Source of the DNA: a virus
Lineage: Duplodnaviria; Caudoviricetes
Strand: one strand, 5' to 3'
Length of the DNA stretch: 64,000 nt
Virus record (IMG/VR): IMGVR_UViG_3300028887_000102
Span: 16,595 to 80,594 of that record
Part shown: piece by piece, positions 628 to 14,691 of the stretch
How positions within the stretch are numbered: position 1 is the first letter of the stretch
Layout of the letters: each line of letters opens with the position of its first letter
Position numbers and translations under genes: made by a program
The notes under the pieces: generated by a model
The model's input: only the letters and a program-made list of their open reading frames with translations
Database searches by the model: none
What the model was told of the DNA's origin: nothing

Positions 628-2844
628 ATGAACATCAAAGTTAAAGAAAATGCCGGTTCTTTTGAACAATCGTTTGCCAAGATGCTTGATAAAATCTATG
701 GCAACAATGGCAATGTCAAGGTGGAAGTAAAGAAGACCCACGATGGAACTCTTTACACGGTATTAAACGATTTCGACCAAGTGGACTTTTTGTTCAAGAC
801 CGATAAGGGAACAAAAGCCCCTACTTGCGATATTACCATTGGTGGTGATACGCTCTTTACGAAAACGGGAGAACCGAAGAAGAAAGTCAAGACATACTAT
901 GGCTTGTTTGATGAAGACCCAACCATTCTCCGTTCGTTCCAGCAAATTTTGCAGAAGTACATCGACGATGTGGACTTGGATTTGCCGTGGCTCCGCTTTG
1001 AAGAATCCAAGAAGAATGAAGAAAACGAAACGGAACTTTCCAAATTGGTTAAGGCTTATTGCCTTGCTACTGGTGGTAAAGATGCCGTTCCAGATAAAGT
1101 TGAAATGGTTGATAAGACCACAATCAACGATGACGGTGATGTTCTTCTTGAATTTAATTTTGAAAACGAAAAAGAAAATGGAACATCTGGTACAACCTAT
1201 GCACTTGTTTGTGGCGATTTGTACAATAATACGGACAAGGACTTGCTCTATTTCTTACACGATTGGCAGAGTGGCGAAAAGGTCACATCGGAAGATGTCT
1301 ATGACCACGATTGGGAATTGGCTAACGACGTGATTAGACCAAGTGAAATTCTCAAAGAATCCAATAAGTCCGAAGCCAAGCGAAACTACTACGGCTACGG
1401 CAAGGATGAACCGATTGACAAAGAAGACAATGACTTTATGTACCAAGTTGCTTTAGACTGGTTCACAAAGAAATTGCGTGGTAAACTCAAGGTGTATGCA
1501 GACCAAGCCGTGAACAAGGTCATCGACAAGGATATGGATTCCTACGAAGAAATTGAAACGATGGATGACTACTATGATTACTTGGAAAAGTATGGGCCGG
1601 ACATCGTTGAAGAAATCAAGAACGACCATGCCGATGAATCCAAGAAGTCCGAAGCGGATTATAGCACATCTCGCGTGAGCAAGTCCATCGCAGATGCATA
1701 CAAGTTGCTTGATGACTATTTCTGCGATAACAACGGTGCATTGAGAAGTGATGCAATCGACAAGATGTACACCACTTTCCGCAACGAAAGTGACTTGACG
1801 GCAAGAAGCAAGTCCAAGGCTACCAAGTCTCATAGTCTTGCTTGGGAAACGCTTATCCGTGAAATCAAGGCAACACTTGAATGGGATGATGAGTTCCCCC
1901 ATGCAACGAGCCTTACATCCGAACAAGTTAAGAACTGGTTCAAGTTGAAGGGCAGGGATTTCAAAGAAGACCTTAAACCGCTTGTGGATGCTATTGATGC
2001 TTACCGCAACAAGAAAGGAGAATCTATGAAGAATGAAGCGAACATTGAAGATTTGAGAAACAAATCTATCTCTCATGGTACGATGCGTTCCGAACACTTG
2101 ATACCGGAGTTCCTTGGAGTTCTCAAGATTTATGCACCGGACAAGTACAATGCTTATGTCAAGGCGAACCCGGAAGTTCTGGATTTGGATGGTCTTGACG
2201 ATGAAACCTTGGGCTACATTGTTGAAGAACTTTTTGATGCTCTCAATGACATCGCACCGGAAGGAACTTATTTTGGCGCACATCCGGGTGATGGTTCGGA
2301 CTACGGATTCTGGGAAGTAGAACCCGATGAATCCAAGAACAAGAATCCCGAATCCAAATGTGGCGATGGCAAGGATGACAAGGGCAAGAAGCCCGAAGAA
2401 TCTGCAAAGCCGGTAAAGAACATTCTTCGCCGCCGTTTTGAAGTTCTCACGAAATCCGTTCTCCATGCTTGCGATAAACTCGTTAAGGATGCATCTCTCG
2501 CAGGGGAATTTGATGATGAAGTCATCTATGCAGAAGATGCCGTGAAGAACGCCGTTGAATCGTTCAATGCTATGGGCGATGCCATCGTTCGTCTCAAGAC
2601 CGTTCTTGAAAGCCATAAGAACGAAGACAATATGGAAATCATCGGCATCTTGTCCGATGCGATTACCAAGATTGTAGCAGACGAGCAGGGCGATGAAACC
2701 GATGCTGCCACGGCTGGGGCAGATAGTGTCATTGACCAAGTTGAAAGGGAATATGGCAACGAACCCGAAAACGAACCGGAAGCGAATGGCGAAGAAAACG
2801 AAGCCCCTAGCCCTGCCGGTGCCGAAGCCCCCGATGAATTTTAA
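628..2844 (+). CDS. Large acidic modular protein with repeated ESxK[NS]E linkers (putative capsid-packaged polyprotein)
   Basis: 738-aa ORF; RBS GGAGA; linkers start at residues 126, 244, 337, 465, 568 and 661. Confidence 0.85.
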   Translation: MNIKVKENAGSFEQSFAKMLDKIYGNNGNVKVEVKKTHDGTLYTVLNDFDQVDFLFKTDKGTKAPTCDITIGGDTLFTKTGEPKKKVKTYYGLFDEDPTILRSFQQILQKYIDDVDLDLPWLRFEESKKNEENETELSKLVKAYCLATGGKDAVPDKVEMVDKTTINDDGDVLLEFNFENEKENGTSGTTYALVCGDLYNNTDKDLLYFLHDWQSGEKVTSEDVYDHDWELANDVIRPSEILKESNKSEAKRNYYGYGKDEPIDKEDNDFMYQVALDWFTKKLRGKLKVYADQAVNKVIDKDMDSYEEIETMDDYYDYLEKYGPDIVEEIKNDHADESKKSEADYSTSRVSKSIADAYKLLDDYFCDNNGALRSDAIDKMYTTFRNESDLTARSKSKATKSHSLAWETLIREIKATLEWDDEFPHATSLTSEQVKNWFKLKGRDFKEDLKPLVDAIDAYRNKKGESMKNEANIEDLRNKSISHGTMRSEHLIPEFLGVLKIYAPDKYNAYVKANPEVLDLDGLDDETLGYIVEELFDALNDIAPEGTYFGAHPGDGSDYGFWEVEPDESKNKNPESKCGDGKDDKGKKPEESAKPVKNILRRRFEVLTKSVLHACDKLVKDASLAGEFDDEVIYAEDAVKNAVESFNAMGDAIVRLKTVLESHKNEDNMEIIGILSDAITKIVADEQGDETDAATAGADSVIDQVEREYGNEPENEPEANGEENEAPSPAGAEAPDEF

Positions 2845-2868: not shown

Positions 2869-2902
2869 AATCCCTGCCATATCGGTGACAGGGATTTTTT
2901 TT
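2869..2902 (+). terminator. Intrinsic terminator
   Basis: AATCCCTG...CAGGGATT stem followed by a T-run, after the stop at 2844. Confidence 0.8.
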
Positions 2903-2923
2903 ATAAAATTTTTATGAAAAGTA

Positions 2924-3156: not shown

Positions 3157-3435
3157 ATGGCTAACAAGATTACAAAAAGCATCACAAAGAATCTCATTGT
3201 TGAAATTCTTTCCAACATCCAATCGGAGATGACCTCGAAAGATTATGGTGCTAGGAACACTACCGGGTATGTAGCGATTGACGCTCTCCGTATGGCACTC
3301 GTCACCGAAAAGTTCCCCAACTCCATTGAGTATATGAATAAGGCTATCGGTTCGGTTAAGAAAGCCGGTTGTCAAGATAATCTTATGCGTTCTCTTGAGA
3401 CGATGAAATCTATCGTGGATGCCCAACAAAAATGA
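3157..3435 (+). CDS. Hypothetical protein
   Basis: ATG after AAAGGGGA RBS; start reassigned within the 2965..3435 ORF. Confidence 0.65.
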   Translation: MANKITKSITKNLIVEILSNIQSEMTSKDYGARNTTGYVAIDALRMALVTEKFPNSIEYMNKAIGSVKKAGCQDNLMRSLETMKSIVDAQQK

Positions 3436-3469
3436 ACTATGCCGTATGCAACGAATAAGGAAAACCATT

Positions 3470-4090
3470 ATGTCTAATAGCAACCTCAAACTTTTCTTGA
3501 ATATCAAATCGGGATTAGCCCCGATTCTCTATGATTATAAGACGGACAAGATTCTTGGTATGCAAACTAGCCGTCCGTCCGATGATTTCAACCCCGAAAC
3601 GATTACCGTCAATGGCGTCGTGTGGATGGCAGAGAACCTTTCCGTCACGGATAGCAAGGATGGGGCTTACTGGTCCGATAAGACCCACGAATGCTATTAC
3701 ACAAGGGATGGGATGCTCCGCATCGTCAAGAATCTTGAGGGATGGCATATCCCGACACACAAGGAATGGGGCGAACTCATTCTAGCAAAGGGTGCTTATC
3801 CGATTGATGACCCGACACACCAAGGGCAGCAGGGATTCTATACCGGGGGCAGGGCTATTCGCAACGACTTGAAGATTGCCACAATCGGAAGTTGGTACGG
3901 AGAAAAAACCGGTGGTGTCACATATCAAAGCGAGTTCGTCACATTCGCTACTAGAACAAGCATTGACGAGCATTCGTATGAAGCGATGACTTTCTATAAC
4001 GATTGCCACTATATGTCTGGCGATACCATCCGCAGGGAAAAGGAATGCAACTGGGTTGGTGTTGCCGTGAGACTTGTCAAGGATTATTAA
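3470..4090 (+). CDS. Fibrobacter succinogenes major paralogous domain (Fib_succ_major/FISUMP-like) protein
   Basis: TITVNGVVWMAENL ... GWHIPTHKEWGEL ... AVRLVKD motifs match the family pattern. Confidence 0.75.
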   Translation: MSNSNLKLFLNIKSGLAPILYDYKTDKILGMQTSRPSDDFNPETITVNGVVWMAENLSVTDSKDGAYWSDKTHECYYTRDGMLRIVKNLEGWHIPTHKEWGELILAKGAYPIDDPTHQGQQGFYTGGRAIRNDLKIATIGSWYGEKTGGVTYQSEFVTFATRTSIDEHSYEAMTFYNDCHYMSGDTIRREKECNWVGVAVRLVKDY

Positions 4091-5145: not shown

Positions 5146-5278
5146 ACTATGATTGCAGATATAACAAAATATCACAAAGATATTACATAATTATCAACAA
5201 TTTATACCCCGACCGATAAAGCCGGTAAGGTTTTTTATTATATTCACAAATAGATATATCTAAAAGGAGTTAAACTCT

Positions 5279-6394
5279 ATGAATCTTACCGAATCCGCAA
5301 AGACCAAACTTTGGCAGGACATCGCATCCGGGATGAACAAGGCTTTCGGTTGCGACATTGGCGAAGCGTTCCATATTAACCAGTACAAGACCGGTTCGGT
5401 TCGCTTCACGGAATCCTTGGATGCAGGGGCTACTGCATCCGCTATCCAGGTGCTTGAAAGTGCATCTCCCGCAATTACGAAAGTCCGTATGACCCCGATT
5501 GCAAACGGCTATGAATCCGTATATGCTATTGACATTGACTTTAACCCTGCCATTGCAGAATCTTTCTATTCCGATGGCAAGAATACTCTTGCATCCATTG
5601 AAAAGGATGGCAAGAAGTATGTTGTACATAACGATGGCTCTGCCACCGAAGTTCAAGACCCCGACAAGTATGTAGATAACCTTAACAAGTCCACCGGTTC
5701 TAGGTTCAAGAAAGAATCCAAGGACGGACTTGAAGATGTGGTCAAACTCGCAAATGAAGCTCTGCAAGATACTGGGGTTTCCGTTGAACTCAACGAAAAG
5801 AAACTCATTCTTCGTGGTTCGGAAAGTCTTTTGAAACCGACCCAGAAGTATTTGCCGGCTATCGGCTACGATAGAGACACCATTGAGGGTGGCTATAACC
5901 CGGAATCGGGAGACCTTACCGTTGATATTCCCGACTACGCAAGTGACCTTGAAATGGAACTCTTGAGAACTTTCCTTGTTAATGCCGTGAACTATGTCAT
6001 CGACCAAGTTGAAAGCACACCTTGCTCCGAAGATGACGAATGGTGCAATGCCTACGCAGAAGCCGAACCCGATGAATCCTATGTGAGCAAACTGGCATAC
6101 AAGGGCGAATCTTTTGTGGGCAACGACAAGAAGAAAATCGCAACCCTTATCAAATCGGTGTGTGCCGAAGATTTTGAAAAGGGTAAGGAACTCGCAGAAC
6201 GATATATGGGCAAGAAACTTTGCGAACAGTTGCTCATCGCTCCCAAGGGTTCAAAGATTACCGAGAGTAAGAAAACGGCTCCCATCCTTGACGATGAAAT
6301 GACCTTGCTTGACAAGATGCACGAATCGGCAATGGCGGTAGCCCCCGAACATCGAACGGATTTGAAATCCCTCGTTGAAAAAAATGTAATGTAA
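5279..6394 (+). CDS. ES-motif-rich acidic protein (putative prohead core/internal head protein)
   Basis: 371 aa; many x-E-S sites (LTESAK, FTESLD, IAESFY, KKESKD, KGESFV, ITESKK, MHESAM); directly upstream of the sheath gene. Confidence 0.6.
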   Translation: MNLTESAKTKLWQDIASGMNKAFGCDIGEAFHINQYKTGSVRFTESLDAGATASAIQVLESASPAITKVRMTPIANGYESVYAIDIDFNPAIAESFYSDGKNTLASIEKDGKKYVVHNDGSATEVQDPDKYVDNLNKSTGSRFKKESKDGLEDVVKLANEALQDTGVSVELNEKKLILRGSESLLKPTQKYLPAIGYDRDTIEGGYNPESGDLTVDIPDYASDLEMELLRTFLVNAVNYVIDQVESTPCSEDDEWCNAYAEAEPDESYVSKLAYKGESFVGNDKKKIATLIKSVCAEDFEKGKELAERYMGKKLCEQLLIAPKGSKITESKKTAPILDDEMTLLDKMHESAMAVAPEHRTDLKSLVEKNVM

Positions 6395-6409: not shown

Positions 6410-8692
6410 ATGCCTATTAACGATTCCGCTGGTGTTGGCGTATATCTTATTGACAAGTCGCAGAGGGCTTCCGTTGCTATCGGCTTCCGTTCCGCAGGAG
6501 CCATAGAAGCCGATAGGGGTCTCTGCAATACTCCCACCTTGATTTCCAGTGAAGCCGACTATGTAAAGATTTTCGGTTCTCCTAGTATGGAACGCCACGG
6601 ACTTGCCGCGATGGAAGCATATATGCTTGCCCAGCGAAAAGTTCCGCAGGTTCTTACAAGAGCAAAGAACCCGATGCTTACCCCGAATGACAATGTATTC
6701 GGCATGGTCAAATTCTTTATTGAAGACGGCAAGTTGAAGATTGACACCACGTCCCCGGCAACGGCTATCGTGGCACCGGTTGAAGAAAACGAATCCTTGC
6801 TCTTTTTCAAGGGCGAGGGTACATACCCGAAGAAACAGCCGGATGAAAGTGAACTTGTTCCGCGCAATTCTTCCAACATCGTTCTTCGTTTTAGCGAACC
6901 CATTACCCAGTCCGCTTATGCTACATCCGGTAGAACTCTCCGTGTGCAAGTCTATGACTTTGATGGTGCGAACCACATTGACAAGGACACCCACGCAGAA
7001 CTTGCATTCAACCCGGATGTAAGTAGCCTTATTGATGCCGATGGCAAGTTCAAGTTGGACGGCTACAAGGTTGGCCCGGAAGATGTTTCGGGTTCGGGTC
7101 TTGACACCCTGCCCGTAAAAATCACGGCTTTCGTCAATGGTCGTTCTTACCAGAAAATCTTTGATTACAATTCCATTGATGCTAATGGCATCTACGAATG
7201 GATTAAGACGGTTGTTTGCCAAGTTGAAGACTCTAGCAACAACCCGATAATCAAAGAAGACTGGATGCAGTATGTGCCGAACGATAGTTCCGCAAACGAT
7301 GGTCTTGGCGAAGGTGGCTACTATCTTCTTGACTCCCGCGAAGAAGACAAGGGATATGCCCAGCAACTCAACTGTTTTGGTCTTTCCGTCACTATCACGA
7401 TTGAAGCGATTCTTCCGATTTCCGAAGAAGACGAACCGGGTCATCGTAAGCTCTCCGCAGGGTTCTACGGCTATCCGTGTGGTAGCGTGAATGTGACCAA
7501 GCAGAACAACCAAGGTTCTATTACCTACTCTGCAAAGTTCAACATTAGTACGAACTTGTATCTCAAGAATCGCACCGACTATATGTATATGGGTCCGCAG
7601 AACTCCTACTGGGCTTCTTACTACCAGACCTATTGCAAGGATGATGCGGTTGTAAGTTTCTCGTATGACGATTACGATGCAAACTACATTACGATGCAGG
7701 CTGATGCCGTTCTCAACGGCTCTAACTATGTTGTACCGAAGTCTAGCGAAACCTTTGGCGATTACAGAATTGACTACGCCACGGATGAAATCACAACGAA
7801 GTTGCACTACTTTGAGGGCGAGATTGAAGAAAATACAATCGCCATCGCCCAGAAGTCCCATGCATACTCCATTGTTCTGCAAAACTTGCTTGCGGACAAC
7901 CTTGTTCGTTGGCGTTGCCTTGCAACTCCGAACCTTGGTGACGTGATGATTCAAGCGGACTTTATTGAAGCCATTACCAAAGCGGAAGAATCCACTCTTG
8001 GTATCTCCAATATCGGTCGCGCCGCATCTACCAATGTCTTCGGTACTGGCAATATGGGTGGCCGTCACGGCAACCGCTTCATCGCAGACTATGCCCAATA
8101 TGCTTATCGCACTCTTGCCGGTAAGAGAACCGCAGTCACGATGGCAAGCCTTGTCACGGACTTGCTCAACACCCACTACAACGAGGGTATTGAAGCCCGC
8201 CCGCCGTTTGGCTACAACTACGGACAAATTACTTGTTTGTCCTTGTCGCAGCAATACTCCGGGGCAGAGCGTAATATTCTTGCTCGTCAGTACAAGATTA
8301 ACCCGGTCATTGAAGATGGTGGCTTCTTTATTTGGGAAGAAAGAACATCTCAAATTACCGACACCTCGCTTTCGGACATCCATAGCATCATTTCGTTTAT
8401 CTGGATGAAGTTTGCTATCTACGATGCAATGAAAGCATTCGTTGCCGAATACAACGATGAAGAAACGGTTAATCGTGGTCTCGCAGTCTTGAACCAGTTG
8501 AACCAAACATTCATTACTCGCAAATACATTGAAGAAGGCATCGTCTCTGCCGATAAGAATGTCATCGGCGATGAAGTTCTCCGCTTTGACTATGCCGTAA
8601 GATTCAAGGGTGTTGCCCGCTTTGTGGATGTTTACATCACCGCTTACAGCCAGACTCAAACTCTTGCCGTAAGCCTTGCAGAGGAGGCTTAA
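6410..8692 (+). CDS. Contractile tail sheath protein
   Basis: 760 aa; N-terminal GVGVYLIDKS; C-terminal YKINPVIEDGGFFIWEERT...AFVAEYNDEET...VRFKGVARFVDVYIT is typical of gp18-like sheaths. Confidence 0.85.
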   Translation: MPINDSAGVGVYLIDKSQRASVAIGFRSAGAIEADRGLCNTPTLISSEADYVKIFGSPSMERHGLAAMEAYMLAQRKVPQVLTRAKNPMLTPNDNVFGMVKFFIEDGKLKIDTTSPATAIVAPVEENESLLFFKGEGTYPKKQPDESELVPRNSSNIVLRFSEPITQSAYATSGRTLRVQVYDFDGANHIDKDTHAELAFNPDVSSLIDADGKFKLDGYKVGPEDVSGSGLDTLPVKITAFVNGRSYQKIFDYNSIDANGIYEWIKTVVCQVEDSSNNPIIKEDWMQYVPNDSSANDGLGEGGYYLLDSREEDKGYAQQLNCFGLSVTITIEAILPISEEDEPGHRKLSAGFYGYPCGSVNVTKQNNQGSITYSAKFNISTNLYLKNRTDYMYMGPQNSYWASYYQTYCKDDAVVSFSYDDYDANYITMQADAVLNGSNYVVPKSSETFGDYRIDYATDEITTKLHYFEGEIEENTIAIAQKSHAYSIVLQNLLADNLVRWRCLATPNLGDVMIQADFIEAITKAEESTLGISNIGRAASTNVFGTGNMGGRHGNRFIADYAQYAYRTLAGKRTAVTMASLVTDLLNTHYNEGIEARPPFGYNYGQITCLSLSQQYSGAERNILARQYKINPVIEDGGFFIWEERTSQITDTSLSDIHSIISFIWMKFAIYDAMKAFVAEYNDEETVNRGLAVLNQLNQTFITRKYIEEGIVSADKNVIGDEVLRFDYAVRFKGVARFVDVYITAYSQTQTLAVSLAEEA

Positions 8693-9328: not shown

Positions 9329-9370
9329 CTCCTTGGCGATGCTCGTTTGCTCACCAAGGAGTTTTTATTT
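9329..9370 (+). terminator. Intrinsic terminator after sheath and tube genes
   Basis: CTCCTTGG...CCAAGGAG stem followed by TTTTTATTT. Confidence 0.7.
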
Positions 9371-9381
9371 ATATTGTAGAT

Positions 9382-9786
9382 ATGGCACTTTCCGTACAAG
9401 AAGCAATAGACACGACCTACTTGGACACGGCACACTACGATACAGTGTGTGAGTTCCCCCGTGGTTTTGAATCCTTGAATAGCATCGTAATCAAGGAAGC
9501 CGGGGGTCTTGTTCCGTTTGTAATCGTGGATGGTTCTTTGAAGACTCAAGAAGCCACTATCACGGCAATCGTGACCGCAGAGCAAGAAAACTTGCTCCGA
9601 CAACTTTACCGATTGACTGTCCATCCGAATTATATTGACCAACGATACCCCATCCTACTTACTTGGGGTCATCCCGACAAGAAAATCCAACTGAATTGCT
9701 ACTTGTCCAATTATAAAGCTCCCGATTCCGTGAACTATGGACAAGCGGAAATTCTTGATGTAGATTTAACTTTAAGAGCAATTTAA
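9382..9786 (+). CDS. Tail/baseplate-associated protein
   Basis: Position in the tail module; start reassigned to ATG 9382. Confidence 0.5.
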   Translation: MALSVQEAIDTTYLDTAHYDTVCEFPRGFESLNSIVIKEAGGLVPFVIVDGSLKTQEATITAIVTAEQENLLRQLYRLTVHPNYIDQRYPILLTWGHPDKKIQLNCYLSNYKAPDSVNYGQAEILDVDLTLRAI

Positions 9787-9806
9787 TTTCAACCGAGGAA
9801 ACCATA

Positions 9807-10514
9807 ATGCTCATACCAGTAAACAAACTCCCGTCCAATTTCAAGCCGTATGATTTCAAGTCGTTTACGATGAAAGCAATCAATGCGGAACAAGCCATCA
9901 ACTTGGGTCCAGAACCGACCCTTATGGACATCCGTAAGCTCATCCAAACTCTTGTGAACGATGAGATTGATGCAAGCAAACTTGTACCTATCGACTTGAA
10001 GTACCTTGTGGCAATGCTTGCATTCCACGCATATCCAAAGCAATCGTGGACTCTCAAATTGACTTGCCCCGAATGTGGACACCATCACACAAAGGTTGTG
10101 GAAATGAAAGACTTTCCCCCAGTGCCGAGCCTTTCGGATGATGACCCCTACCCACTTACTATTGACGATGGTAAACACGTCTATGAACTAGGCTATGCAT
10201 CGGTGGAAGCGATTAGCGGAATTGAAGTAGGCAAGTCCGAAAACATTGATGTCATTGCCGCCCACATCATTTCCATTGACGGCAATACGGATGACATCAA
10301 GAAGAAGTTGCTTGAGATTGAAGATTTCGGTGTTCTTGGTTTGATGTACCAAGCCATCTTGAAATACTTTGAAGTCGAAACCTATGCGGAGTTCAAATGC
10401 CCCAAATGCGAAAAGACTTACAAGGTCGCAATGAGTGCTATTGAGGTCACTCAATACACTCCGTTTCTTGACGAGAAAACGCCTAGCCGATATAAGACTA
10501 ATTTTAGGCTTTGA
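9807..10514 (+). CDS. Baseplate hub/tail assembly chaperone (T4 gp26/gp51-like) with two CxxC motifs
   Basis: LTCPECGHHH and FKCPKCEK; lies before the tape-measure-like gene; ends YKTNFRL. Confidence 0.7.
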   Translation: MLIPVNKLPSNFKPYDFKSFTMKAINAEQAINLGPEPTLMDIRKLIQTLVNDEIDASKLVPIDLKYLVAMLAFHAYPKQSWTLKLTCPECGHHHTKVVEMKDFPPVPSLSDDDPYPLTIDDGKHVYELGYASVEAISGIEVGKSENIDVIAAHIISIDGNTDDIKKKLLEIEDFGVLGLMYQAILKYFEVETYAEFKCPKCEKTYKVAMSAIEVTQYTPFLDEKTPSRYKTNFRL

Positions 10515-10617
10515 TTTCAATATGCAACTTTCCCTAGCCGAGATAGAAGACTATCTCCGTGCTAGAGAAGAAATGCTGGAGAAAGAAAAGCGGAACAACA
10601 ATAAGAAAAAGGTATAG
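10509..10617 (+). other. Predicted +1 frameshift site (CTT TGA) and C-terminal extension DFNMQLSLAEIEDYLRAREEMLEKEKRNNNKKKV
   Basis: The +1 frame is open across the TGA and ends 2 nt before the next ATG. Confidence 0.65.
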
Positions 10618-10619
10618 TT

Positions 10620-12638
10620 ATGGCATTGACGCTTGAACAACTTTTTGAAAATATGCGAAGCACCACGGAGTCCAAAGAAGATGGAAACCCGTTGAAAGAT
10701 ATTTTCAATCGGGCGTTCAAGTCGTTTGATGGTGTGGCTAATAGTCTCAAGAACCTTTCCGAACAAATCAAGGTCCAGAATGCCCAAAACCAAACCGCCC
10801 GATTAACCGGTGCGGCATCGGATGTTCAATCCCAAATCCGTGAATTGCTCCAAGCAAAAATCGCAGAAGACCAGATTGAATCCGAACGAAACAAAAGGAT
10901 GATGGACATTGCCGAAAGGCTCGTTCCCCAAGTGACGGAAGAACAACTCAAGGCATTCCGTATGCAACAGTTGTTGTTTAAGGAACACCAAAAGACACTT
11001 GAGAACACCCTTGACATCGAGAAGAAAAAAGCCGAAGTTCAAAAGCAAGCCGCACAAGATATGGCTAATCGGCAGATAGCCACTATCAAGGACAAGTATG
11101 GTACTTTTGAATCCGCTATCGCAGGTGCCGGTAATATGGCACAAGACTCGCTATCAAAATACTTGATTAGCGGTCTTGGTCGTTTTGTAAAAGAACGAAA
11201 AGAAGACCCCCAGATAGCACGTGCGAACACCATCACCGAAAACAAGAAGAACCTTGCGGACAAGATGCTTGCTACCCGGACGGACAATATCAAAGAAGAT
11301 TTTGCCATCCGTGCCGCAAAGCAACACATCGCAGACCCCGGCTCTGCATCCAAGCTCTATGCCGAAAGGGATTCCGATGTCAAGAGCCTTGCATCGCAGG
11401 GGGCATCCATTGAAAAGGGATTGGCTTCTGGCAAGTACAAGTTCTCATTGCCCAAGGTTGAAAAGGCAATGTCCGATGTTGCCAAGGCTATCAAGGGCGA
11501 AGACACACCCAATATTGCTAAAGCGGACATTGCCGAGATTCAAGAGATTCCGGAAATCACAAAGGATAGCATAAATAAGTTGCTTGACTTTGAGCCACCC
11601 ACCGTTGAAGCAAAGGTGGATGCACCGAACCCCCCGAAGACCGAACCTACGGCAAAGATAGAACCGAACCCCCCGAAAGCCGTACCTACGGAAAAGAAAG
11701 AACCGACACCAAAGAAAGCTCCGAAGAATGCAAAGATGCAGAAAGCCACACGGCAGAGTTCATCCTTGCTTACTCCGGCAACAAAGCGAACACCCCAGAC
11801 CACAAGGATTGCCCCCGCAACTCCTATGAAAGCGGGTGCGACTAAAAATGCCGTCAAGACGGCAAGTGTCGGTGTAAAAGCCACAAAGACCGGGGCATCC
11901 GTTGCTTCGGGAGCAAGGGCGGTTGGAGCATTCGGTAGCAAAGCCGGTGCCATCAATGTGGGTGCAATCGGTTCGGCGCTAGGCTCTATGTCTGCCAAAC
12001 TTGGTACACTCGCTAGTTCATCTCTCAAGTTCCTTGGACCCTGGGGAATGGTGGCTAGTGCCGTAATGTCTTTTGATAGACTTGTTCCTATCATAAGCCA
12101 AGGTGTAGGAGCAATCCTTGACATAACAAAAGTTATTATGCCCCTACTCGTTTCCAGTATCATAGAGGGGTTTGCTCAAGGTGTCGGCGCTTTGAATGGT
12201 CTTATCAACTTGTTAGACCACGCACCACTTTTCGGTAGAAAATGGACGGAATCGGGAGAAGTCACGAAAGCCGTAGCATCCGAAAGGGATAAAGAAGCCG
12301 AACGGCAAACCAGATTGAGTACGGCAAAGAAGCAAGCCGCCTTGGGTGGTGGTACACTTGACACGACATCTGCCGTCAAGGGTGTTAATGCAGGGTTCGC
12401 ACAAGTTGGAAAGCCCCTTGTGACGAGACAAGAAACGACTCTCACGAACCCGGCAGAAGCGGCTAGGGTCTCCGCACCCCCTCCGCAAGAACCCCAGCAG
12501 AACTTTTCTATGGACGATTGGAAACAACAAACAGAGCAAAACCAAGCGATGCGAGAAGCCGTACTCGCGGCATCCAAGAATCCGGGAACTACACCGATTA
12601 TGGTGTCTAGTCCTTATATGGAGCCGTGGCCGGCTTGA
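10620..12638 (+). CDS. Tape-measure/hub-like protein (T4 gp29-like position)
   Basis: 672 aa; coiled-coil N-terminus, Pro/Lys/Thr-rich linker, Ala/Gly-rich hydrophobic segment; follows the chaperone gene. Confidence 0.6.
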   Translation: MALTLEQLFENMRSTTESKEDGNPLKDIFNRAFKSFDGVANSLKNLSEQIKVQNAQNQTARLTGAASDVQSQIRELLQAKIAEDQIESERNKRMMDIAERLVPQVTEEQLKAFRMQQLLFKEHQKTLENTLDIEKKKAEVQKQAAQDMANRQIATIKDKYGTFESAIAGAGNMAQDSLSKYLISGLGRFVKERKEDPQIARANTITENKKNLADKMLATRTDNIKEDFAIRAAKQHIADPGSASKLYAERDSDVKSLASQGASIEKGLASGKYKFSLPKVEKAMSDVAKAIKGEDTPNIAKADIAEIQEIPEITKDSINKLLDFEPPTVEAKVDAPNPPKTEPTAKIEPNPPKAVPTEKKEPTPKKAPKNAKMQKATRQSSSLLTPATKRTPQTTRIAPATPMKAGATKNAVKTASVGVKATKTGASVASGARAVGAFGSKAGAINVGAIGSALGSMSAKLGTLASSSLKFLGPWGMVASAVMSFDRLVPIISQGVGAILDITKVIMPLLVSSIIEGFAQGVGALNGLINLLDHAPLFGRKWTESGEVTKAVASERDKEAERQTRLSTAKKQAALGGGTLDTTSAVKGVNAGFAQVGKPLVTRQETTLTNPAEAARVSAPPPQEPQQNFSMDDWKQQTEQNQAMREAVLAASKNPGTTPIMVSSPYMEPWPA

Positions 12639-12647
12639 GGGTAAACG

Positions 12648-13574
12648 ATGCCTACGATTGAATCTAAAGAATTTCGCTATGCGGCAAGAGCCAACTGTTA
12701 TCGGTATGGTTGTCTCTATGTGTATTCGGACAATCCTATTAGCCTTGATGACCATAATTTCCCATCGTACTCATCCAAAGAGAGTACCGGTGCCGTTGAG
12801 AAGTTCCTATCCTTGATTCAAAGTTTAGGTTCTCAAGCAACCGGCAACGACCCTGCGGACAAGTTGTCCAAGCCCCTGCCGGGTGTTCAATGGAACGATG
12901 GTGGTGGTACATTAAGTCAATCTATCACGCTTGACGGCACAATGTATTTCTTGAGTTATAACGACTATGTGGATTGCAAAAGGTCACTCCGCAAAGAAAT
13001 CGTTAGCCAAGGTTGGGAACAAGTCGTGTCCAGAAATGAAACTCTGGGTATGAGCCTTTCTACCTATCGCCCTGCAAAGCACGGTTCGGATGCCCTTTAC
13101 AACGATGACCCAGTGGATGCGGCAGGGATGGCTATGATGACATCCGCAATGCAACATTCGATGGACCAGACCAAGATGCTTGTCGGCTACATATCTAGCG
13201 ATTCCCAAATGTATGCCGAGGGCAAAGCAAGGTCTGAATCGTCTATGGCCGGCAAGTTGGCTGGTGTTCCGGTGGCAGGGGCTATCGGTGGCATCGGTGC
13301 AAACATCGCGGCTGGTGTTGAAGCGATGGGTTCTAACTTTAATTCGGGTATCGTAGGCAAATGGCGATTCGCTGGTCATCCGGTAGAATTGCTCATAGAG
13401 GGTGGTGTGGCAAGGGCTAGTGTAAGTGCCGTTATGTCCAAGGCTACATTCACGGAACAAGCCTATGTGGTAGATGATACATCTGGTAATCAAGTATATC
13501 CTACCGAGATGAAAGTACGGATTGAACTTGTCAATATGTATGGTTCTTTGTTCACGGCATCATCGGAGAAGTAA
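12648..13574 (+). CDS. Baseplate/tube-initiator-like protein
   Basis: 308 aa; synteny in the tail module; C-terminal VYPTEMKVRIELVNM beta strands. Confidence 0.5.
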   Translation: MPTIESKEFRYAARANCYRYGCLYVYSDNPISLDDHNFPSYSSKESTGAVEKFLSLIQSLGSQATGNDPADKLSKPLPGVQWNDGGGTLSQSITLDGTMYFLSYNDYVDCKRSLRKEIVSQGWEQVVSRNETLGMSLSTYRPAKHGSDALYNDDPVDAAGMAMMTSAMQHSMDQTKMLVGYISSDSQMYAEGKARSESSMAGKLAGVPVAGAIGGIGANIAAGVEAMGSNFNSGIVGKWRFAGHPVELLIEGGVARASVSAVMSKATFTEQAYVVDDTSGNQVYPTEMKVRIELVNMYGSLFTASSEK

Positions 13575-13577
13575 ACT

Positions 13578-13844
13578 ATGGATGAGATAAGAAGCATTGA
13601 GAGATTCCTTGAATCCAATAGTAGTGTCAATCCCCGACCGGCTGCCGGGACGGTTGTACAAGCGGACTTGAAGACCAAGTATCGCCCGGACAAGTTGTTT
13701 GTCCGTGATGGGTTGATGAAGTGGAATATGATATTCAACGGCATCGACACACCACATAGGATGGCAAACCGCAGTATGCAAGTCCGCATAGACCCTACTT
13801 GGCTCAAGACGGAACTTGCAGAAATAAAGGATTTCAAGATTTAA
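13578..13844 (+). CDS. Small baseplate wedge-like protein
   Basis: 88 aa; assigned by synteny only. Confidence 0.4.
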   Translation: MDEIRSIERFLESNSSVNPRPAAGTVVQADLKTKYRPDKLFVRDGLMKWNMIFNGIDTPHRMANRSMQVRIDPTWLKTELAEIKDFKI

Positions 13845-13847
13845 ATT

Positions 13848-14651
13848 ATGGTTGAATGCAGTATCGGACATATTGACGGAGCGATAATCCGCAAGGCTTT
13901 ATCGGGCTACACATTCGCACAAATTACCGTGCCGATGGAGAACTACAACGATTCTCCAAAGTTCACTCTTACGATAGATAAGAAAACTACCGAGTACAAG
14001 ATGGTTGGTAGCGAAGTGTTTATGCAATCTGGGTCAAAAACCGCCGTTAAGATTTCTGCAATCAAAGCCGAACAAGAAAAATGGCTTGAAGTCGTTCCGT
14101 CATCCGTTGAAGAAGCGGACATCAAAGACTTGCTCAAGGGTCTTGAGATTGAAGACGGCCCAAGTCTGCCGGTGTCTAATCTAATCAATATTTTCTTGAC
14201 CAAGGGTCAATATGCATTGATGCTTGCCAATATGACCGCGAAGAATGCTTTCATAGACTTTGACAAGCAAAAAGTTGTCTATTATTCGGAGCTTTATAAG
14301 CAAAAAGCCCAAGTCATCCAAGTTCCGTTCCGTAGAATTTATAGCCGAGTTCCAATGGCTGGTTATTTCGGATGGGAAGAAACGGCAAGTGGTTATTTCC
14401 CGGATGATGCCCAGGCCATCATACCTTTCGGTCAATTCAATAATATGGACAAGAACACCCTTGACAACCTAGTGACCAACTGCAATGACATCGCCAAAAT
14501 GTTTAGCGATTTGCAAGTGTTCACTTGGCCCGAAGAACTTGAATTGGGAACTGCGGTATTGAGTCCATTGACGATGGACAAGAAAATAATCGTAGCCGTT
14601 GAAGAACAATGGGATTCCCAGACCCCACTCAACGCTTTCTACTGCATCTAA
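13848..14651 (+). CDS. Baseplate hub-like protein
   Basis: 267 aa; last gene of the tail module; assigned by synteny only. Confidence 0.4.
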   Translation: MVECSIGHIDGAIIRKALSGYTFAQITVPMENYNDSPKFTLTIDKKTTEYKMVGSEVFMQSGSKTAVKISAIKAEQEKWLEVVPSSVEEADIKDLLKGLEIEDGPSLPVSNLINIFLTKGQYALMLANMTAKNAFIDFDKQKVVYYSELYKQKAQVIQVPFRRIYSRVPMAGYFGWEETASGYFPDDAQAIIPFGQFNNMDKNTLDNLVTNCNDIAKMFSDLQVFTWPEELELGTAVLSPLTMDKKIIVAVEEQWDSQTPLNAFYCI

Positions 14652-14691
14652 TTGTAAGTAAAATGTAAGTAATAATTTTTAAAGAAATCTA

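Follow-up and report, generated by a model that had tools for sequence, protein, structure and literature searches.

A head-module polyprotein with standardised linkers as a candidate source of capsid-packed proteins in an uncultured T4-like jumbo phage

In phage T4, the internal proteins IPI, IPII, IPIII and Alt carry a 10-residue capsid targeting sequence (CTS) that is removed by the gp21 prohead protease (PMC9026906, PMC3012670), and more than 30 variants of the internal proteins are known in T-even phages (PMC2839356). Proteases of the gp21 type cut after Glu, the first described site being a Glu-Ala bond (PMC9026906), and related proteases lose a C-terminal propeptide at a position after the catalytic domain (PMC10052503). 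In phiKZ, 201phi2-1 and SPN3US, inner-body and ejection proteins are processed by gp175/gp245 (PMC10052503, PMC9026906). Polyvalent proteins consist of two to fifteen unrelated domains in variable architectures, are predicted to travel in the capsid and to be delivered together with the DNA, and have been likened to the polyproteins of RNA viruses (PMC5512222). A literature search did not turn up any account of head polyproteins of phages in which a standard linker is cleaved in trans. The present analysis concerns P0001, a 738-amino acid (aa) protein encoded in a 64,000-nt stretch (hereafter the window) of virus record IMGVR_UViG_3300028887_000102. The window comprises bases 16595-80594 of an 80.6-kb IMG/VR virus fragment with a CheckV completeness of 37%. 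Positions in the numbering of the whole record are marked G000, and the start of P0001 at window position 628 corresponds to G000 17222. From its sequence, this one gene probably yields several small capsid-packed proteins.

P0001 was found to be acidic, with an isoelectric point of 4.5 and a net charge of -66. Its start lay 15 nt past the stop of the preceding open reading frame (ORF), with a GGAGA ribosome-binding site at 8 nt. The motif ES.K[NS]E was present at aa 126, 244, 337, 465 and 661 with spacings of 118, 93, 128, 103 and 93 aa, the last of which was counted from a degenerate copy at aa 568. The degenerate copies read DESKNKNPESK (aa 567-577) and EESAKP (aa 590-595). In 20000 residue shuffles of P0001, 93 contained one motif and none contained more, against the five observed, so the acidic protein with regularly spaced linkers that the first-pass annotation had described was confirmed in its positions and spacings. 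The DNA coordinates it gave for four of the linkers (1003, 1357, 1636 and 2020) were exact, and the strings at these points were GAATCCAAGAAGAATGAAG, GAATCCAATAAGTCCGAAG, GAATCCAAGAAGTCCGAAG and GAATCTATGAAGAATGAAG, respectively. It had counted six linkers; those at aa 126, 244, 337 and 465 and the degenerate one at 568 held up, but the copy at 661 lies in a strongly conserved C-terminal domain. The H-K-N-E-D-N stretch at 663-668 within this domain was the same across 27 relatives, and the 661 site is, judged by this conservation, part of the domain and not a cassette boundary; it may still be a cut site. The blocks between the linkers were mutually unrelated, as had been proposed, since the comparison of block against block produced nothing significant (best E 0.005-0.04 in a 7-sequence database). 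Several of the weak matches, including two of the best, were anchored at the linker-proximal ends. The approximately 35 residues upstream of linkers 1, 2 and 3 (window 913-1020, 1261-1374 and 1531-1653) aligned weakly with each other at E 0.03-0.04 in this tiny database, and the motif of six residues may be preceded by further similarity between blocks 1, 2 and 3.

The motif belongs to the head module as a whole and not to P0001 alone. The strict motif had 12 copies in the called ORFs of the genome, all within the five ORFs starting at G000 6622, 11126, 14469, 17222 (P0001) and 41336. The broader pattern [KR][SN]E[ASGDE] occurred 24 times in the 4556 aa of head-module ORFs and three times in 18862 aa elsewhere, a 33-fold higher density (Fisher p = 1e-14). 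For KK.E[ASG], 21 occurrences were observed against 1.9 expected; 15 of the 21 fell in head-module ORFs and two more in the second linker-bearing ORF of the window (Table 1). The linker also proved to be a standardised element beyond this genome, as had been suspected, with 262 [ED]S.K.E sites in 120 retrieved family sequences and a consensus of E-S-K-K-S-E followed by Ala. At these sites the final Glu was invariant, the next residue was A, S, G, D or E, and the third residue before the presumed cut (P3) was Lys. Two of the other linker-bearing proteins were inspected. The second one in the window is approximately 22 kb from the head module and showed a weak DUF6926 match at its C-terminus. 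The other, a 1030-aa polyprotein just past the capsid gene (G000 11126-14218, L003), contained eight or more linkers, including a tandem one (E-S-K-K-S-E-S-K-K-N-E), and also had a copy of block 5, 50% identical to P0001 462-580.

The linker E-S-K-K-S/N-E resembles a site at which the phage's own head protease would cut. The gene for a gp21-type (S77) prohead protease was identified approximately 11 kb upstream of P0001 within one head module, which also encodes a gp23-type capsid protein, and as in T4 the two occur in one genome. In the capsid protein, residues 57-61 carry the motif N-Y-K-K-Y-E followed by A, and in the diverged relative L005 the corresponding motif is K-R-Y-E followed by S. 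The T4 gp23 propeptide is 65 aa long, and we take the motif of the capsid protein to be close to the point at which that propeptide is removed. In addition, the proteases of L005 and L009 showed S-E-S-K-K-N-E immediately after the catalytic domain. The link to a prohead protease made by the first-pass annotation was therefore borne out as regards the presence of an S77 protease upstream and the cutting of this class after Glu (PMC9026906), but the linkers read K-[SN]-E and their Lys at P3 fits neither the T4 rule of L/I-x-E nor the phiKZ rule of S/A-x-E. If the linkers are cut, the protease specificity would be new. The phiKZ group resembles the present phage in being giant myoviruses with a gp21-like protease, in many cuts after Glu in abundant internal head proteins (here predicted) and in some substrates with several sites. 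In that group, however, the cuts remove or fragment N-terminal propeptides at S/A-x-E and what matures is a single protein instead of a chain of exchangeable modules. PHROG and homologue searches found no sequence relationship of P0001 to the processed proteins of the phiKZ type.

The relation of the linkers to N-terminal leaders pointed to the origin of the polyproteins. The leader M[NQK]I[KTS]V[KH]E started six first-ATG ORFs including P0001, all of which were in the head module (G000 1-19.4 kb), and among first-ATG ORFs of at least 96 aa the leader of P0001 was common only to five other head-module ORFs of the genome. The only other first-ATG matches to the leader pattern were ORFs of 62 aa and 36 aa outside the head module that read MSLSVS and MMMSVY, which look like chance. 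Stand-alone genes for block 2 and block 4 began with a leader of 10-14 residues (M-x-I-K-V-H-E...K-S/N-E), followed by K-x-E, the block and the stop codon. In these genes the block started at the position that corresponds to the first residue past the linker Glu of P0001, or no more than a few residues from it. Another type of leader, F-x-C-S-M-Q-K...E-S-F-K-K-N-E, was N-terminal in two L005 genes and internal in two ORFs of the studied genome; the second linker-bearing ORF of the window carried R-F-E-C-S-M-Q-K-R-V-E-S-F-K-K-N-E-A internally, which is an N-terminal leader in relatives. Because the leaders of stand-alone genes end in the linker peptide and copies occur both at N-termini and internally, we take the linker to be what is kept of an N-terminal leader, namely its processing half, and the polyproteins to be fusions of leader-bearing genes. 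A pattern search for internal copies of Met plus leader after linkers found none as the pattern was written, and the family alignment showed such an arrangement in P0055 and P0099. Two further ORFs of 122 and 96 aa (G000 1085-1453 and 1463-1753, + strand, L003) both start with M-N-I-K-V-H-E-S-K-K-[MN]-E encoded by near-identical DNA; both are overlapped by a longer and probably spurious ORF (1046-1924) of the other strand.

Compared with the internal proteins of T4, these genes likewise have a short common N-terminal leader on otherwise unrelated small proteins, ending in what would be a Glu-specific site, and the locus is likewise hypervariable between close relatives. Unlike the T4 proteins, several units are placed in one reading frame and the processing half of the leader is kept as an internal linker. 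The T4 CTS is MKTYQEFIAE with Leu or Ile at P3, against M-x-I-K-V-H-E...K-S/N-E with Lys at P3 here, which makes the leader analogous and not homologous. The blocks also differ in being acidic and in being joined to a conserved C-terminal domain. Pfam and PHROG searches showed no homology to IPI, IPII, IPIII or Alt and matched only phrog_29605.

Block shuffling is real, as close relatives differ by whole-block insertions and deletions bounded by linkers. Shuffling among homologs had been set beforehand as the test on which the proposal could fail, and relatives were found to gain, lose and reorder whole blocks. The ends of BLAST alignments clustered at the linkers in the family searches, and the blocks of P0001 were found at varying positions in proteins of 400-1276 aa. 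Relatives with 85-96% identity over the aligned blocks differed by whole blocks, either by the absence of block 2, which was missing from the close relatives P0004-P0010, or by extra blocks after linker 3 or at the 568 spacer. Cutting 132 proteins at the linkers produced 456 segments in 158 block families (clustered at 75% mutual coverage), with up to 25 left neighbours for one block. The junction in L004, which does not have block 2, showed the left flank of linker 1 and the right flank of linker 2, and the switch was located inside the 10-nt AAGAATCCAA core common to the two linkers. Within the genome, TCC coded for the linker Ser in 17 of 22 cases (background 0.24-0.29), and the 12-mer GAATCCAAGAAG occurred 10 times, on the + strand only. 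Such uniform linker DNA would favour block exchange, and recombination of the T4 type needs only short homology (PMC2839356). A purely DNA-level conservation of the linker was rejected. In L005 the first linker Ser was coded by TCC, AGC and AGT while the peptide stayed E-S-K-K-S/N-E, and this mixture of TCN and AGY codons with the peptide kept indicates that selection acts on the peptide itself.

The shuffling is reminiscent of two described arrangements. P0001 consists of six or seven unrelated blocks and its family of 158 block families in many neighbour contexts, which is similar to polyvalent proteins. Those carry known conflict domains and usually a cis-acting embedded peptidase, neither of which was found in P0001 by Pfam searches; its release would be in trans at a standard linker, and such linkers are not mentioned in the paper on polyvalent proteins (PMC5512222). 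The PeSLs of T4-type phages are also short conserved sequences that flank variable cassettes and serve as recombination sites while leaving the neighbours undamaged, but they are intergenic promoter-terminator elements of approximately 100 bp, whereas the present element is a coding patch of 10-20 nt at which exchange would be in frame inside a gene (PMC2839356).

The blocks also occurred outside polyproteins, and blocks 2, 4 and 5 were found as the first block right behind a protein start. Block 2 was encoded by stand-alone genes of 124-125 aa in other phages (P0270-P0274) behind M-R-I-K-V-H-E-K-Q-E or M-K-N-E. Block 4 (aa 343-462) was a stand-alone gene of 135-139 aa in relatives, with a leader ending in K-S-E. 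Block 5 directly followed Met in many family members, and an L010 ORF begins with M-ANIEDL, which corresponds to the residue after linker 4. The first-pass annotation had likened the block HGTMRSEH...GDGSDYGFW to proteins that occur as stand-alone phage ORFs, and hundreds of viral proteins of approximately 100 aa were indeed retrieved: block 5 had more than 326 homologues shorter than 405 aa, with most among the matches listed at approximately 90-150 aa, and is a widespread viral stand-alone family. One homologue, ORF041 of Pseudomonas phage KPP25, lies within a run of small hypothetical ORFs outside the annotated structural genes. Modelled alone, block 5 reached a pLDDT of 90.4 and a pTM of 0.80, and the model presents it as an autonomous alpha/beta domain. 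No solved fold was found for this model (Foldseek best E 0.44, VIA best Z 5.0), a profile of 71 block-5 homologues against PDB sequences returned nothing below E 0.028, and a search of the ESM Atlas returned unnamed viral clusters only. Block 5 matched phrog_29605, a family of unknown function (E 7.5e-12, aa 531-565), and no other block matched any family in Pfam or PHROGs. Pfam, PHROGs and PADLOC searches with the whole of P0001 and with each block produced no family of known function, with no Pfam match at E up to 0.5; the sole PADLOC match, HamB at 13.9 bits, was dismissed as noise. Only the last 140 aa of P0001 were conserved across relatives. This C-terminal domain is helical, with a hairpin and a third helix, and its acidic tail ends in EF; it was always C-terminal, single-copy and syntenic, with 21 clusters at 50% identity in a search of 1.8 billion representatives.

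Taken together, P0001 is somewhat more plausibly than otherwise a cargo system like the T4 internal proteins in polyprotein form, which would be directed to the prohead and be cleaved by the S77 protease after each linker Glu, and whose modules would remain in the head. Under this explanation, P0001 would be the fused counterpart of the separately encoded internal proteins of T4, each block of approximately 100 aa would be an independent unit, and between the blocks only the last part of the leader (E-S-K-K-S/N-E) would remain. P0001 would be built into the prohead core, perhaps via its leader and/or the conserved C-terminal helical domain. The gp21-type protease would then cut after the final Glu of each linker, before Ala, Gly, Ser or Asp, and release about six pieces of 8-15 kDa, which would remain with the DNA inside the head. 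As the linkers are near-identical at the DNA level within the genome, they would also act as in-frame recombination joints, at which cassette-like blocks would be added, removed or swapped. That the modules are injected and act as anti-host effectors is possible but doubtful. A further and speculative proposal, which we regard as less likely than not, is that a peptide with two jobs, a new cut site with Lys at P3 and a DNA joint, makes the capsid-sheath locus a "cargo integron" of small anti-host modules. These would be inserted, deleted and reordered as cassettes, co-packaged in a fixed ratio and injected, and many would derive from ordinary early genes taken over from other phages.

If the linkers are cut, a tailed phage would use a polyprotein strategy for its virion cargo, in which many small proteins are made in equal amounts from one promoter and with one targeting signal, and new modules can be added at a standard joint without new regulation. 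It would also mean a new substrate rule for gp21-type proteases and provide a natural model for the loading of a T4-type head with several foreign proteins. Hundreds of small phage proteins that look functionless, including the block-5 family, would become candidates for acting in the first seconds of infection.

Several observations weigh against P0001 as a cleaved cargo polyprotein. The Lys at P3 differs from Leu or Ile in T4 and from Ser or Ala in phiKZ and SPN3US, and the cleavage specificity was assumed. The protease of the studied genome itself showed only a degenerate T-E-S-K-Q-E-K at the expected self-cleavage point, and the leader of P0001 is followed by N-A-G-S-F-E, which is not a canonical site. 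P0001 is very acidic, whereas the T4 internal proteins are Lys-rich DNA binders. No block had a recognisable function, so that the term effector is a conjecture. The clade has no cultured member, and the nearest isolates, with approximately 30% capsid-protein identity, have no such polyproteins. The full-length AlphaFold2 model (27-sequence alignment) had a pLDDT of 42 and a pTM of 0.23, values too low for any judgement on whether the linkers are exposed or the fold is continuous. A structure search with this model found generic helical hairpins only, with Z up to 8.7, which is below the level that the search tool rates as meaningful for helical proteins, and one uncharacterised viral protein with 35% identity over 112 columns that is probably a relative of block 5.

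P0001 could instead be a polyprotein of the scaffold or prohead core, whose pieces, after cutting at the linkers, would assist assembly and then be degraded and leave the head before the DNA is packaged or while it enters, as with T4 gp22 or the long SPN3US propeptides, and would not be cargo for the host. This would suit an acidic and largely helical protein, the C-terminal hairpin especially, encoded in the head module; redundant cleavage sites are typical of propeptides cleared from the heads of giant phages (PMC10052503, PMC9026906), and the C-terminal domain has one positional orthologue in each relative, which is what an assembly component would show. A T4 gp22 equivalent would be expected between the protease and capsid genes, but P0001 is not there and has only its C-terminal part conserved. 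The swapping of unrelated folded domains between phages more than 85% identical would be unexpected of scaffolds, the blocks are predicted to be well-folded units and not extended helices, and the hundreds of stand-alone block-5 proteins in unrelated phages, with the KPP25 copy away from structural genes, also argue against a scaffold, which we regard as unlikely. Similarly unlikely is an uncleaved multidomain virion or assembly protein, in which the peptide would be a hydrophilic flexible connector spread as a DNA recombination patch and its likeness to a protease site would be coincidental. The linker DNA is indeed more uniform than the peptide demands, as seen in the TCC codons and the repeated 12-mer, one indel breakpoint fell in the linker core, and there are precedents for packaging or transfer without cutting in the virion RNA polymerase of phage N4 and in several polyvalent proteins (PMC5512222). 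The Ser codons of L005 speak for selection on the protein sequence, however, and a passive linker would rarely keep four of its six positions invariant at 262 sites. Moreover, the peptide ends the leaders of single-block genes, where a connector is needless, and it is present in the capsid protein and the protease at the usual processing positions. Finally, the linkers could be functionless fossils of gene fusion or could contain internal translation starts that make the blocks separately, which is very improbable. Leaders that are N-terminal in one phage and internal in another, and the internal Met plus leader kept by P0055 and P0099, are in line with this explanation. The linkers of P0001, on the other hand, have neither a Met nor a sequence like a ribosome-binding site, and functionless fossils should decay, whereas the motif was kept across relatives of approximately 30% identity.

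The related genomes of the clade were approximately 213-230 kb, and the phage is therefore a jumbo phage. Overall, the source virus is an uncultured T4-like gut phage of approximately 220 kb, a myovirus with a T4-type head. The first 12 kb had no Megablast match among 50,697 phage records. P0001 was located approximately 6 kb downstream of the capsid gene, and the order of capsid protein, linker-bearing genes and tail sheath was the same in L004, L005 and L009-L014. An equal gene order was found in L016, in which a stand-alone block-4 gene lies inside the capsid-sheath interval. Rhizobium phage RHph_TM30, the nearest isolate, could not be used as a model, as its capsid-sheath interval holds small genes only and no polyprotein. 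The coordinates of the features are as in Table 1.

Table 1. Features of P0001 and of the surrounding head and tail genes (window positions unless marked G000).
Feature	Position (strand)	Details
P0001 ORF	628..2844 (+)	738 aa, stop-free translation
Leader M-N-I-K-V-K-E	628..648 (+)	N-terminus of P0001
Linker 1, ESKKNE	1003..1020 (+)	aa 126-131; left breakpoint of the block-2 indel relative to L004
Block 2	1021..1356 (+)	aa 132-243
Linker 2, ESNKSE	1357..1374 (+)	aa 244-249
Linker 3, ESKKSE	1636..1653 (+)	aa 337-342; insertion point of extra blocks in P0003, P0010 and P0007
Block 4	1654..2019 (+)	aa 343-464
Linker 4, ESMKNE	2020..2037 (+)	aa 465-470
Block 5	2038..2328 (+)	aa 471-567; predicted alpha/beta domain; phrog_29605
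Degenerate Lys/Asp-rich spacer, ESKNKNPESK and EESAKP	2329..2412 (+)	aa 568-595; P0009 has an extra block here
Conserved C-terminal domain	2416..2841 (+)	aa 597-738; includes ESHKNE at 2608-2625
Hairpin ATCCCTG...CAGGGAT with eight T	2871-2903 (+)	after the P0001 stop; read from the sequence
Near-consensus sigma-70-type promoter, TTGACA-17-TATATT	2924-2952	11 of 12 positions match
Tail sheath	6410-8692	Pfam/PHROG matches
Baseplate hub	9807-10514	Pfam/PHROG matches
Second linker-bearing protein, 409 aa	24742..25971 (+)	ESKKRFE, ESFKKNEA, ESKKSES
Prohead protease, gp21-type (S77)	G000 5184-6200	upstream of the window; Peptidase_S77 PF03420, 27.9 bits (cut-off 27), 2e-6; phrog_207, E 6.6e-23
Major capsid protein, Gp23-type	G000 9332-10981	upstream of the window

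The hairpin and T-run that follow P0001 are likely the end of a transcription unit. Together with the promoter downstream, they indicate that P0001 is the last gene of its unit, and they separate the head unit cleanly from the genes that follow. A scan of the sequence did not list this hairpin, and its loop as read exceeds the 3-8-nt limit of that scan. In L016, a 318-aa PAPS_reduct-like gene (13701-14657, weak Pfam match) was found between the cargo locus and the tail sheath, and none was present in the window. Finally, a 223-aa protein at window 3419-4090 showed a sub-threshold match to Fib_succ_major (PF09603, 27.8 bits; cut-off 33.9), with an equally faint match in L004, which may hint at a host of the Fibrobacter/Bacteroidota type or at a carbohydrate-binding virion protein.

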